Of a stretch of 64,000 nucleotides of DNA, positions 56,713 to 61,400 are shown piece by piece. The DNA is from Escherichia coli (GTDB lineage Bacteria > Pseudomonadota > Gammaproteobacteria > Enterobacterales > Enterobacteriaceae): assembly GCF_009931435.1 (NCBI RefSeq), contig NZ_CP043414.1. One strand, 5' to 3'. Both the position numbers and the translations under genes were made by a program. The notes beneath the pieces were generated by a model that had not been told where the DNA came from, searched no databases, and saw only the letters and a list, made by a program, of their open reading frames with translations. Position 1 is the first letter of the stretch. Each line of letters opens with the position of its first letter.

Positions 56713-56810
56713 GCCGCATCAGGTATGTAACGCCTGATGCGACGCTGACGCGTCTTATCTGGCCTACACGTTCCGATTTTGTAGGCCGGATAAGCAAAGC
56801 GCATCCGGCA
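56713..56810. repeat. REP-like palindromic units in araA-araD spacer
   Basis: GCCGCATCAGGTATGTAACGCCTGATGCGACGC...TGTAGGCCGGATAAGCAAAGCGCATCCGGCA read in sequence; REP family by consensus. Confidence 0.75.
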
Positions 56811-56813
56811 TTC

Positions 56814-56856
56814 TTTTCCCCCTCGCCCCTTTGGGGAGAGGGCCGGGGTGAGGGGA
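56814..56856. repeat. GC-rich imperfect palindrome (boxC-like) immediately upstream of araD SD
   Basis: TTTTCCCCCTCGCCCCTTTGGGGAGAGGGCCGGGGTGAGGGG; CCCCTCGCCCC pairs with GGGGTGAGGGG. Family assignment (boxC-like) is from memory and uncertain. Confidence 0.45.
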
Positions 56857-56877
56857 AACGACCTCTCAGGAGTCAAC

Positions 56878-57573
56878 ATGTTAGAAGATCTCAAACGTCA
56901 GGTTTTAGAAGCCAACCTGGCGCTGCCAAAACACAACCTGGTCACGCTGACCTGGGGCAACGTCAGCGCCGTTGATCGCGAGCGCGGCGTCTTTGTAATC
57001 AAACCTTCCGGCGTCGATTACAACGTCATGACCGCTGACGATATGGTCGTGGTCAGCATCGAAACCGGTGAAGTGGTTGAAGGTACGAAAAAGCCCTCCT
57101 CCGACACGCCAACTCACCGGCTGCTCTATCAGGCATTCCCGTCCATTGGCGGCATTGTGCATACGCACTCCCGCCACGCCACCATCTGGGCGCAGGCGGG
57201 CCAGTCAATTCCGGCAACCGGCACCACCCACGCCGACTATTTCTACGGCACCATTCCCTGCACTCGCAAAATGACCGACGCAGAAATCAACGGCGAATAT
57301 GAGTGGGAAACCGGTAACGTCATCGTTGAAACTTTCGAAAAACAGGGTATCGACGCAGCGCAAATGCCTGGCGTTCTGGTCCATTCTCACGGCCCGTTTG
57401 CATGGGGTAAAAACGCTGAAGACGCAGTGCATAACGCCATCGTGCTGGAAGAAGTCGCTTATATGGGGATTTTCTGCCGCCAGCTTGCTCCGCAGTTACC
57501 GGATATGCAGCAAACATTGCTGGATAAACACTATCTGCGTAAGCATGGTGCGAAGGCATATTACGGGCAGTGA
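56878..57573 (+). CDS. araD: L-ribulose-5-phosphate 4-epimerase, 231 aa
   Basis: Track ORF 56848..57573 trimmed to [48 protein letters not shown]... Confidence 0.95.
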
Positions 57574-57578
57574 TTTAA

Positions 57579-57612
57579 GAGAAGCATCTGGGTAACAGGT
57601 GCTTCTTTTTTA
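57579..57612 (+). terminator. Intrinsic terminator after araD
   Basis: AGAAGCATCTG-ggtaac-AGGTGCTTCT (one mismatch in stem) followed by TTTTTTATTAT, 6 nt after the araD stop. Confidence 0.65.
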
Positions 57613-57619
57613 TTATCAC

Positions 57620-58063
57620 TCAGGCAGCAAGAAAAATTTCTGCCCCTATTCCCTCAATTAACAGTGCTTCTAATGAAGGGGCAATATACACCGCATCATC
57701 AAGATCTAAATTACCAAAACCGACGAGATATAAACCAAACCCCTCTTTTCCTTCGGCATAAAAAATCACTTTTCCGCCTTCATCATCGCCAATCGCCAGA
57801 GCGTGTGGAATATAATCCTGAATATGGTATGCGGCATTCATCTCACTACAGCCTGCGGCTCCCCAAATTCTGATATAAGACGTTGAATCCATCACTTTTA
57901 ATTCAACGTCTGCCATCAGAGTAATAAAGGTTAAATACTCATCAGGAATTGCAATGTGAAAATAATTTTTTATAAGTTGACCGAGTCCACTATAATCTAA
58001 TACGGGTTCCCATGACGCCAGCGTGAATTTTTCATGCAATTTAACAATAGGAAACTTACTCAT
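57620..58063 (-). CDS. Hypothetical protein, 147 aa, SUKH/SMI1-KNR4-like (putative immunity protein)
   Basis: Track ORF; ATG start overlaps upstream ORF stop (ATGA). Segments IPDEYLTFITL, ALAIGDDEGGKVIFY, GLYLVGFGNLDLDDAVYIAPSLEALL resemble the SMI1/KNR4 (SUKH-1) pattern. Assignment by eye only. Confidence 0.6.
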   Translation of the reverse strand: MSKFPIVKLHEKFTLASWEPVLDYSGLGQLIKNYFHIAIPDEYLTFITLMADVELKVMDSTSYIRIWGAAGCSEMNAAYHIQDYIPHALAIGDDEGGKVIFYAEGKEGFGLYLVGFGNLDLDDAVYIAPSLEALLIEGIGAEIFLAA

Positions 58064-58407
58064 TTCATCATCCTTTTCTTATACTTCTGGGGTAAAATAT
58101 CCGTTATAACGCCTTCACCTATAAATCCGGCTTCCCACAGCAGAAACTCACTGCCACAGCTGATCCACGGCATTACAAGTTCAGGATTTAAAAACGCCAT
58201 CTCAAGATTGTGTACCATTTCGCCAGGGTGAATCGTTTTTCCATAGCCGTCGATGTAAATCCGGCAGCCATAACCATATGAAGATAACTCATTAATCCCT
58301 TTAAAAAAGACAGGACAGCCGTAAAAACGGTTAGATGATAACAAAGGGCCACGATGCGATTTTTGCGTTGAAGAGTATAGTGTAATGGTAATCCGAACCT
58401 TTCTCAT
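58060..58407 (-). CDS. Hypothetical protein, 115 aa, no recognisable family
   Basis: Track ORF; ATG preceded by GGAGGG SD (minus strand TTCGGAGGGAAGATG); translationally coupled to the downstream SUKH-like ORF (4-nt overlap). Confidence 0.6.
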   Translation of the reverse strand: MRKVRITITLYSSTQKSHRGPLLSSNRFYGCPVFFKGINELSSYGYGCRIYIDGYGKTIHPGEMVHNLEMAFLNPELVMPWISCGSEFLLWEAGFIGEGVITDILPQKYKKRMMK

Positions 58408-58419
58408 CTTCCCTCCGAA

Positions 58420-58752
58420 TTAATTACGCTCTTCAATCAAATATGTCGTTTTATTAGTCCAGGCGATTATTTTATAGGGTCTGTTAATAATACCTTTCTG
58501 CGTATAATCAGCCATAATTTCTGATGGATACCAACCATAACCAAAGCAAAATAAAGCACCTACATTAATAAGCTCACTAATTACACTTAGTTTCTCATTT
58601 TCATTACTGGTATTTTTGCTAAATCGATCATTGTCGGCAGAAAAACCCAACCGTTGCATTTTTTCAACGTTATCATATCCGGTCACTACCGTTTCAATGA
58701 AATTATCACTTATGCTAACCACTATAATACAATCGCTCGGCAGTGTGTTCAT
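58420..58752 (-). CDS. Hypothetical protein, 110 aa, no recognisable family
   Basis: Track ORF; ATG start; 12-nt gap to next ORF; AT-rich upstream region 58753-58975 likely holds the promoter. Confidence 0.55.
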   Translation of the reverse strand: MNTLPSDCIIVVSISDNFIETVVTGYDNVEKMQRLGFSADNDRFSKNTSNENEKLSVISELINVGALFCFGYGWYPSEIMADYTQKGIINRPYKIIAWTNKTTYLIEERN

Positions 58753-58975
58753 TTCCCCTTGATCCTTCTAAAGTCATTTTTTCACCACAACAATGAATTC
58801 AATAGATATAATGAATATATGCAGCCATTTATATATAATTAGCATTACACCCTAATGCCTTAATATAACCCAAACAGAAATCGTCCGATAATCAGAAAAT
58901 GTAATCATTGAATAAAGCAGGAACCTTTTTATCGCATGAGAAACCGAAGATGGTTGATGCCGTTTCGTCAAACAT

Positions 58976-58995
58976 TACTGTACAAAATATCAGTG
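58976..58995. promoter_or_regulatory. LexA-box-like sequence upstream of polB (one mismatch to CTGT-N8-ACAG)
   Basis: TACTGTACAAAATATCAGTG: CTGT-N8-TCAG. polB is a known SOS gene; the K-12 box as I recall (CTGTATAAAACCACAG) is a perfect match, this one is not. Confidence 0.45.
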
Positions 58996-59001
58996 TTCAG
59001 T

Positions 59002-59034
59002 AAAAAACCAGGCTATAATCAAGCCTGGTTTTTT
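59002..59034. terminator. A-run/hairpin/T-run element just upstream of polB (hairpin loop contains TATAAT)
   Basis: AAAAAACCAGGCTATAATCAAGCCTGGTTTTTT; perfect 7-bp stem CCAGGCT/AGCCTGG. Could terminate transcription from either side and/or supply the polB -10. Confidence 0.55.
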
Positions 59035-59048
59035 GATGGATTTTCAGC

Positions 59049-61400
59049 GTGGCGCAGGCAGGTTTTATCTTAACCCGACACTGGCGGGACACCCCGCAAG
59101 GGACAGAGGTCTCCTTCTGGCTGGCGACGGACAACGGGCCGTTGCAGGTTACGCTTGCACCGCAAGAGTCCGTGGCGTTTATTCCCGCCGATCAGGTTCC
59201 CCGCGCCCAGCATATTTTGCAGGGTGAACAAGGCTTTCGCCTGACGCCGCTGGCGTTAAAGGATTTTCATCGCCAGCCGGTGTATGGCCTTTACTGTCGC
59301 GCCCATCGCCAGTTAATGAATTACGAAAAGCGCCTGCGTGAAGGTGGCGTTACCGTCTACGAGGCCGATGTGCGCCCGCCAGAACGCTATCTGATGGAGC
59401 GGTTTATCACCTCACCGGTGTGGGTCGAGGGTGATATGCGCAATGGCGCTATCGTTAATGCCCGTCTGAAACCGCATCCCGACTACCGCCCGCCGCTCAA
59501 GTGGGTTTCTATTGATATTGAAACCACCCGCCACGGTGAACTGTACTGCATCGGTCTGGAAGGCTGCGGGCAGCGCATCGTTTATATGCTGGGGCCGGAG
59601 AATGGCGATGCCTCCGCGCTTGATTTCGAACTGGAGTACGTCGCCAGTCGTCCGCATCTGCTGGAAAAACTCAACGCCTGGTTTGCTAACCACGATCCCG
59701 ATGTGATCATCGGCTGGAACGTGGTGCAATTCGATCTGCGAATGCTGCAAAAACATGCCGAGCGTTATCGTATTCCGCTGCGGCTGGGGCGCGATAACAG
59801 TGAGCTGGAGTGGCGCGAGCACGGCTTTAAAAACGGTGTCTTTTTTGCCCAGGCCAAAGGGCGGCTAATTATCGACGGTATCGAGGCACTGAAATCCGCG
59901 TTCTGGAATTTCTCTTCATTCTCGCTGGAAACCGTCGCTCAGGAGTTATTAGGCGAAGGAAAATCTATCGATAACCCGTGGGATCGGATGGACGAAATTG
60001 ACCGCCGTTTCGCCGAAGATAAACCTGCGCTAGCAACTTATAACCTGAAAGATTGCGAACTGGTGACGCAGATCTTCCACAAAACTGAAATCATGCCGTT
60101 TTTACTCGAACGAGCGACGGTTAACGGCCTGCCGGTAGATCGGCACGGGGGATCGGTGGCGGCGTTTGGTCATCTCTATTTTCCGCGAATGCATCGCGCT
60201 GGTTATGTCGCGCCTAATCTCGGCGAAGTGCCGCCGCACGCCAGCCCTGGCGGCTATGTGATGGATTCGCGGCCTGGGCTTTATGATTCGGTACTGGTGC
60301 TGGACTATAAAAGCCTGTACCCGTCGATCATCCGCACCTTTCTGATTGATCCCGTCGGACTGGTAGAAGGTATGGCGCAGCCTGATCCAGAGCACAGTAC
60401 CGAAGGCTTTCTCGATGCCTGGTTCTCGCGGGAGAAACATTGCCTGCCGGAGATTGTGACTAACATCTGGCACGGGCGCGATGAAGCCAAACGCCAGGGC
60501 AATAAACCGCTGTCGCAGGCGCTGAAGATCATTATGAATGCCTTTTACGGCGTGCTCGGTACTACCGCCTGTCGCTTCTTCGATCCGCGCCTGGCATCGT
60601 CGATCACCATGCGTGGTCATCAGATCATGCGGCAAACCAAAGCGTTGATTGAAGCGCAGGGCTACGACGTGATCTACGGCGATACCGACTCAACGTTTGT
60701 CTGGCTGAAAGGCGCACATTCGGAAGAAGAAGCGGCGAAAATCGGTCGTGCACTGGTGCAGCACGTTAACGCCTGGTGGGCAGAAACGTTGCAACAGCAA
60801 CGGCTGACTAGCGCACTGGAATTGGAGTATGAAACCCATTTCTGCCGTTTTCTGATGCCAACCATTCGCGGAGCCGATACCGGCAGTAAAAAACGTTATG
60901 CCGGGCTGATTCAGGAGGGCGATAAGCAGCGGATGGTGTTTAAAGGGCTGGAAACCGTGCGCACCGACTGGACACCGCTGGCCCAGCAGTTTCAGCAGGA
61001 GCTATATCTACGTATCTTCCGCAACGAGCCATATCAGGAGTACGTCCGCGAAACCATCGACAAACTGATGGCTGGCGAACTGGATGCACGGCTGGTTTAC
61101 CGTAAACGCCTTCGCCGTCCACTGAGCGAATACCAGCGTAATGTGCCGCCTCATGTACGCGCCGCACGCCTTGCGGATGAAGAAAACCAAAAGCGCGGTC
61201 GCCCCTTGCAATATCAGAACCGCGGCACCATTAAGTACGTATGGACCACCAACGGCCCGGAGCCGCTGGACTACCAACGTTCACCGCTGGATTACGAACA
61301 CTATCTGACCCGCCAGCTACAACCCGTGGCGGAGGGAATACTCCCTTTTATTGAGGATAATTTTGCTACACTTATGACCGGGCAACTTGGGCTATTTTGA
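59049..61400 (+). CDS. polB: DNA polymerase II (family B), 783 aa, GTG start
   Basis: Track ORF; (M)[40 protein letters not shown]...; exonuclease and polymerase motifs (YGDTDS) present. Confidence 0.96.

Follow-up and report, generated by a model that had tools for sequence, protein, structure and literature searches.

The 64,000-nucleotide stretch of Escherichia coli DNA analysed here (the window) contains the junction between the arabinose operon and polB. araD and polB are read in the same direction and are separated by three small open reading frames on the opposite strand, a predicted LexA operator and a terminator-like hairpin that holds the -10 hexamer of the polB promoter. The features are, with window coordinates:

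56878-57573, plus strand: araD (L-ribulose-5-phosphate 4-epimerase), the last gene of araBAD, with the start placed at the Met of MLEDLK..., which gives the annotated length of 231 aa.
57575-59004, minus strand: variable segment from the araD stop to the hairpin, 1.43 kb, with three minus-strand ORFs; its right end holds the operator.
57577-57609, plus strand: araD-proximal intrinsic terminator, new relative to K-12, with a 14-bp stem and a T tract (-21.7 kcal/mol, z -6.6).
57620-58063, minus strand: island ORF of 147 aa.
58060-58407, minus strand: island ORF of 115 aa.
58420-58752, minus strand: island ORF of 110 aa.
58976-58995, no strand: predicted LexA (SOS) operator of polB, 20-mer TACTGTACAAAATATCAGTG, with the core CTG-N10-CAG at 58978-58993.
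58991-58996, plus strand: -35-equivalent hexamer CAGTGT, with a 17-nt spacer, overlapping the right half of the operator and placed from the K-12 transcription start site (TSS).
59001-59035, plus strand: intrinsic-terminator-like hairpin with a 9-bp core stem (14 bp with A/T pairs), a 7-nt loop and T6 at 59029-59034.
59014-59019, plus strand: -10 hexamer TATAAT of the polB promoter, with the first T paired at the top of the stem and the remaining five in the loop.
59026, plus strand: predicted polB TSS (a T of AGCCTGG in the 3' arm), placed by comparison with the TSSs mapped in K-12 and Klebsiella pneumoniae.
59049-61400, plus strand: polB (DNA polymerase II), GTG start, 783 aa, annotated in this way in matching E. 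coli records.

Pfam DNA_pol_B domains were found for polB in identical context.

LexA operators follow the consensus TACTG(TA)5CAGTA, in which CTG-N10-CAG is invariant (PMC11228462). In the window, CTGTACAAAATATCAG is read at 58978-58993 and forms the 16-mer core of a box that keeps both invariant elements of the gammaproteobacterial LexA operator, CTG and CAG, with 10 bp between them; eight of these ten bases are A or T. The first-pass annotation had placed an imperfect box at this position, with a right half of TCAG, and it is indeed present there. Between 56074 and 60382 it is the sole CTG-N10-CAG. Candidate sites were scored by the heterology index (HI), where lower values are better, using a matrix re-derived from the 19 E. 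coli operators in PMC3009722, with polB left out and two of the outer flanks added from outside that table. This matrix correlates with the published HI values at r = 0.93, and gives 12.8 for K-12 polB where 13 is published. The window 20-mer scores 9.2, which falls among the values of known functional sites (published HI of up to about 13). No other 20-mer on the two strands of the 64-kb window comes as close to a LexA site, the runner-up scoring 12.0. Dinucleotide shuffles of 64 kb contain a site of this quality 0.08 times on average, which scales arithmetically to about 2e-4 times per 150-nt upstream region. A second canonical box within about 150 bp upstream of polB was searched for and none was found; over 58750-59048, no further LexA-like 20-mer was better than HI 16.8. 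If transcription starts as in K-12, the 20-mer would occupy -50 to -31 and its 16-mer core -48 to -33, over a weak -35 region. By homology to the mapped K-12 TSS, and with the start in the window strain predicted from it, the operator overlaps the promoter.

The core of the hairpin consists of a 5' arm AACCAGGCT (59006-59014), a loop ATAATCA (59015-59021) and a 3' arm AGCCTGGTT (59022-59030). Its fold has a free energy of -22.5 kcal/mol (z = -6.1; 0 of 200 shuffles as good), it is called by a terminator scan, and the opposite strand folds at -18.9 kcal/mol. The earlier description of a hairpin adjoining the box with TATAAT in its loop is right, with the detail that the first T belongs to the closing pair of the stem. 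For the stretch 59005-59060 (56 nt), 407 records reach 99% or more, and the best-listed E. coli genomes, O157:H7 among them, are 100% identical. An Rfam search of 57500-59300 gave no match. It can be added that the -10 hexamer is polymorphic in E. coli (TATACT in K-12, TATAAT in O157:H7 and others), and that the 5' arm contains CCWGG, a Dcm site.

The other promoter element is poor. The -35-equivalent hexamer CAGTGT matches TTGACA at one of six positions, compared with three of six for the K-12 hexamer CAGCCA, and a consensus promoter scan called no promoter at the polB -10/-35 site. Because the K-12 -35 is also weak and its TSS has nevertheless been mapped, the polB promoter appears to depend on its -10. 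Given a -35-equivalent hexamer poorer than that of K-12, basal promoter strength is not predictable from the sequence.

For the transcription start there are mapped counterparts in two genera. In K-12, the polB TSS is at 65803 on the minus strand, with a 23-nt 5'UTR (Kim et al. 2012; PMC3415461 supplementary file 2), and the 51-mer upstream of it is GACTGTATAAAACCACAGCC...TATACTCAAGCCT (PMC3415461). A start near 65803 had been predicted beforehand from the -10 hexamer, and the published map lists exactly this position. In K. pneumoniae, the polB TSS is at 69499 on the minus strand, with a 24-nt 5'UTR and the upstream sequence CCTGTATAAAACCCCAGC...CCAGGCTATAATCAGGCCTG (PMC3415461 supplementary file 2). 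Both mapped starts lie 7-8 nt past the -10 hexamer, within the 3' arm of the hairpin. By analogy, polB in the window would have a 23-nt leader (59026-59048) that lacks the 5' arm. The overlap of a terminator-like hairpin with the promoter -10, which the first-pass annotation had pointed out, thus fits the mapped starts in two genera, and it is conserved in the family. A low-count TSS at K-12 65946 (minus strand), inside the 3' end of araD, has also been assigned to polB, with a 166-nt UTR (Kim et al. 2012). Its equivalent in the window, at about 57482, is severed from polB by the island.

Comparison with K-12 shows which parts of this arrangement are shared. K-12 polB (dinA) has, like the window, a GTG start, a 23-nt leader, the CTG and CAG half-sites and 20 nt from CAG to the -10 hexamer. 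The hairpins agree at 24 of 25 core bases, the sole difference being in the loop (TATACT in K-12, TATAAT in the window). Because the distances from the box to the 5' arm (12 nt) and to the -10 (20 nt) agree in both, the window box is, judged from the sequence, the positional orthologue of the K-12 polB/dinA LexA box and not a new site. The operators themselves differ at 10 of 20 positions. K-12 polB has CTGTATAAAACCACAG, the perfect box that the first-pass annotation had correctly given for it; the window has flanks TA...TG and the core TACAAAATAT, and its 12-nt spacer is unrelated to that of K-12. The difference from K-12 that had been suspected is thus real. In the window, araD lies 1475 nt away with the island between, compared with 74 nt in K-12, and the K-12 derivative JM83 has tgaCTGTATAAAACCACAGccaatcaaacgaAACCAGGCTATACTCAAGCCTGGTTTTTTgatggattttcagcGTG directly after the araD stop. 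Homology to K-12 ends at 57574 (the araD stop) and resumes at 59005. The operator sequence differs from K-12 because the 1.43-kb segment separates araD from the polB promoter and brings an alternative class of box.

This segment is rare. The contiguous junction of the K-12 type is present in 5391 of 5426 complete E. coli genomes, and the island version, at 91% identity, in two of the 5426 (2014C-3075 and SCU-301). An island match at 99% or better was not found in the complete E. coli genomes, to which the window is 96-98% identical. In a large assembly collection, an identical 110-aa protein occurs in 85 blocks, and every place shown has the order rapA-polB-island-araD-araA. The 147-aa ORF has a sub-threshold match to SMI1_KNR4/SUKH-1 (E 5e-4), an immunity-protein-like family. 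Apart from this, the island proteins had no match in Pfam, NCBIfam or PADLOC, and the 115-aa and 110-aa ORFs had none at all there. The polB box is 226 nt from the first island ORF, and a search near the box for a minus-strand promoter, as a sign of LexA control of the island operon, found no match. The approximately 100 nt to the left of the box were considered as the 3' remnant of a DUF218-like gene, an idea that was dropped when blastn of 58753-59004 against 82 loci matched only 2014C-3075. At the other end of the island, E. coli 2014C-3075 matches the window at every base of the 100-nt stretch 57540-57640, and a related version follows araD in Leclercia and Pseudocitrobacter. The terminator at 57577-57609 is predicted to take over araBAD termination. 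On the far side of araD, the araA-araD intergenic region (56715-57015) is 82-87% identical to E. coli references, compared with 95-99% in the surroundings.

To place the window among its relatives, 80 polB loci were collected from a survey in which each species was represented by a single genome (Escherichia, Salmonella, Citrobacter, Enterobacter, Klebsiella, Raoultella, Kluyvera, Buttiauxella and others). One locus offered too short an upstream region, and the 81 that could be used were made up of 78 species loci, the window and two more from E. coli. In 81 of 81, a CTG-N10-CAG box lies upstream of TATAAT or TATACT, at a distance of 20 nt in 79 and 21 nt in two. In an ungapped alignment of 80 sequences, CTGTA, CAG and TATA-T are invariant, and the 10-12 nt between box and hairpin vary freely. 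Over 78 distinct sequences, 86.9% of the stem cells are paired. Covariation statistics for the hairpin stem were not significant, the stem sequence itself being conserved. One clear compensated replacement is seen in Buttiauxella, where the stem AAGTGGTC/GACCACTT, shifted by one alignment column, has TATAAT in its loop. A closer comparison is that with 2014C-3075, whose island is 86-94% identical to that of the window: the 16-nt box and the hairpin are identical and the 12-nt spacer matches at 4 of 12 positions. Identical box and hairpin beside a diverged spacer point to purifying selection on both. In one case, Escherichia sp. MOD1-EC7003, the contig has just 32 nt before polB, and these bear no resemblance to the usual hairpin or box, which may reflect an assembly break at a repeat or an insertion.

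In all 73 species loci with enough upstream sequence, araD is found within 1.5 kb upstream of polB. Additional genes (cargo) lie between the two in 25 species loci, the window and 2014C-3075, that is, in 27 of 78 classified loci. The types of cargo differ, and include a plus-strand DUF218-like gene of about 207 aa, a 170-aa ORF, a pair of 283 and 139 aa, and assorted small minus-strand ORFs; in every case the cargo lies on the left side of the LexA box. Where araD is adjacent, the hairpin is always intact; it is lost or replaced in about 12 of the 27 cargo loci (including Salmonella, Phytobacter, Superficieibacter and Pseudocitrobacter). In every cargo-bearing locus, a separate predicted stem-loop directly follows araD. 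This pattern fits a main role of the hairpin in araBAD termination, a role that would become dispensable once cargo and a new terminator intervene. A different rule, that the hairpin is kept only together with a co-directional upstream gene, was rejected, as six of the nine loci with a co-directional DUF218-like gene have lost it. It is worth noting that in Superficieibacter, Phytobacter and Buttiauxella agrestis (loci L020, at 2319-2948, L047, L070 and L079) a co-directional ORF of about 202-209 aa ends in or beside the polB LexA box, so that the operator is there partly coding sequence. Judged by eye from its sequence, this ORF looks like a member of the DUF218/YdcF family.

The 5' arm behaves differently from the hairpin as a whole. 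AACCAGG(C/T) (59006-59013) is kept even in the approximately 12 lineages without the 3' arm, and because it is conserved where its partner is gone, it is, on this sequence evidence, constrained by something other than RNA pairing. AACCAGGY could be the binding site of a second polB regulator; 5' arm and loop are in any case needed as promoter DNA.

What the hairpin does in the window is a separate question. In K-12 it starts about 35 nt past the araD stop and is the first terminator-like structure after araD. This position and its sequence features suggest that it serves there as the araBAD terminator, in line with the older literature. A full-text literature search for an account of the overlap between araD terminator and polB promoter returned nothing useful. 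The window hairpin has a GC-rich stem-loop directly followed by a U tract, as intrinsic terminators do, but does not lie at the 3' end of a co-directional unit: the genes closest upstream of it are read from the minus strand, and araD, 1.4 kb away, ends in a terminator of its own. Other terminators that overlap a downstream promoter share with it the GC-rich stem and U tract, a loop that contains the next -10 and a TSS within the 3' arm; they differ in that a co-directional gene ends directly upstream. Because araD has its own terminator, the window hairpin is probably redundant as a terminator, a retained relic or a back-up insulator. It might instead still be mainly a terminator or insulator and no relic, perhaps acting in both directions (A6 and T6) and shielding polB and the island operon from each other. 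Its stem is perfect and, at 14 bp with the A/T extension, longer than that of K-12, it folds well on both strands, and it is intact in both island haplotypes. However, the island ORFs are transcribed away from it, the araD terminator is strong, the A tract is not conserved in 2014C-3075 (GTAAACC), and 12 other cargo-bearing lineages have lost the 3' arm. We regard a continuing main role of this kind as rather unlikely.

The strength of the operator is the point on which the first-pass annotation went furthest, proposing that TCAG in place of ACAG might weaken LexA repression of polB. HI scoring, which had been suggested as a check, gave:

Window operator: 9.2 for the full 20-mer, 10.0 with a matrix without uvrA, 7.6 for the inner 16 nt.
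E. coli 2014C-3075 operator: 7.6 for the full 20-mer, 8.4 with a matrix without uvrA.
K-12 operator: 12.8 for the full 20-mer, 12.5 with a matrix without uvrA, 5.7 for the inner 16 nt.

Over the full 20-mer the window is thus better than K-12, with or without uvrA in the matrix, and this advantage stems from the flanks (TA...T compared with G...CC in K-12); over the inner 16 nt the order is reversed. Because the inner part is slightly worse, we call the window operator comparable to that of K-12 and not stronger. On the standard index its predicted affinity for LexA would be the better of the two, and the sequence gives no sign of a weaker site. It also helps to see where the K-12 box itself stands. 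Its published value of 13 is among the two poorest listed for classical SOS boxes, and across species, where HI ranges from 2.4 to 12.8, E. coli K-12 is the worst and the window is in the mid-to-upper range.

Both flagged features of the window box occur in established operators. The bona fide uvrA operator ends in ...TTCAGG (PMC3009722 Table 7). uvrA, with TCAG, has a published HI of 6.2, and sulA, with CTGTAC, one of 5.4; both are classical operators with low HI. The uvrA/ssb operator TACTGTATATTCATTCAGGT belongs to a different gene, has a different core and lies in a shared divergent promoter region, but its TCAG right half is that of the window, and this half-site is therefore compatible with LexA control. 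Among the orthologous polB boxes, 15 of 78 classified have TCAG. A very similar box is found in Salmonella enterica and in Citrobacter youngae and C. braakii, where CTGTACAAAATAACAGT differs from the window 16-mer by one base (A to T); the Salmonella loci compared carry CTGTACAAAATAACAG, one base off the window. These species share with the window the CAGT flank class, the spacing and minus-strand cargo between araD and polB. They differ from it in that their cargo genes are unrelated and, for Salmonella, in the loss of the hairpin 3' arm. Salmonella polB is induced 3.4-fold by nalidixic acid. K-12 polB is induced 4.7-fold by AZT in a lexA-dependent manner (PMC11228462 Table 1).

A weakened site, with polB partly derepressed and basal Pol II higher than in K-12, would draw on several real features. 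Among the 19 E. coli operators, uvrA alone has T before CAG, so that no base is less common there, and this T adds 1.9 HI units; the C in CTGTAC adds 2.5. The inner-16 score favours K-12, and the perfect TATAAT, compared with TATACT in K-12, could raise basal transcription. Set against this are the full 20-mer score, the retained CAG, the occurrence of both deviations in classical low-HI operators and of TCAG in other polB boxes, the box left unchanged between two diverged island haplotypes, and the poor standing of the K-12 box. Weaker repression is unsupported because the features flagged for it occur in established operators and the full HI is below that of K-12; we consider it quite unlikely. 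That the box is a non-functional look-alike which arrived with the island, leaving polB constitutive from TATAAT and outside LexA control, can hardly be right: it does lie inside the replaced segment, and about 13 of the 32 positions of box and spacer are not those of K-12, in a setting where araD and polB on either side match E. coli at 96-98%, but a chance match of this quality is hardly to be expected in the region, the spacing to the -10 is that of nearly all orthologues, its 16 nt are identical in a second island haplotype whose neighbouring spacer has diverged, and an equivalent class of box occurs in Citrobacter and in Salmonella, where polB is SOS-inducible.

The class of box is linked to the cargo. 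Of the 27 cargo loci, 25 have the flank CAGT, and of the 51 loci where araD is adjacent, 47 have CAGC (Fisher p ~1e-14, uncorrected for phylogeny). The TCAG half-site, likewise counted with no such correction, is found in 14 of the 27 cargo loci and in 1 of the 51 araD-adjacent ones. The contrast between flank class and cargo is seen again inside the genera Citrobacter, Escherichia, Kluyvera and Trabulsiella. Box class would be expected to track cargo if an old cargo haplotype recombined between lineages. A broader version of this idea is that the araD-polB junction is a recurrent hotspot of integration and replacement, with two old operator-promoter haplotypes of which the window class moves with cargo across genera by recombination. 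We offer it as a speculation and would not expect it to hold in full.

Taken together, we are fairly confident that what lies here is polB's own SOS-regulated promoter, present as an alternative allele. For the window strain, we infer LexA binding, SOS induction and the TSS by analogy. In the proposed model, a LexA dimer on the 20-bp operator at 58976-58995 would cover the -35 region and block RNA polymerase, and DNA damage, through self-cleavage of LexA, would free the promoter. Transcription would then start at about 59026, within the 3' arm; because this start comes after the 5' arm, polB transcripts would be unable to form the full stem-loop and would escape termination. Transcripts arriving from upstream would carry the whole hairpin and U tract, and would be stopped. 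araBAD is silent without arabinose. In genomes of the K-12 type, the hairpin would insulate polB from arabinose-induced read-through; in the window, with the island between araD and the operator and a terminator of araD's own, it would be at most a back-up insulator.

In kind, the feature is already known, namely a polB SOS operator and promoter set in the hairpin on the araBAD side, and what the window has is a rarer, island-linked allele of it. The promoter-in-terminator layout is visible in existing K-12 data and is no peculiarity of the window strain. For SOS biology the consequences are small, as nothing in the sequence suggests that regulation is altered. Among the versions of the polB site, that of K-12 is one of the poorest and no reference standard. 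The design with a promoter inside a terminator is conserved across the Enterobacteriaceae and agrees with the mapped starts, and the difference from K-12 is traced to a small, rare gene island that replaces the junction between araD and the operator. If the pattern of haplotypes and hotspot were true, the locus would be a modest example of regulatory DNA travelling with accessory genes.
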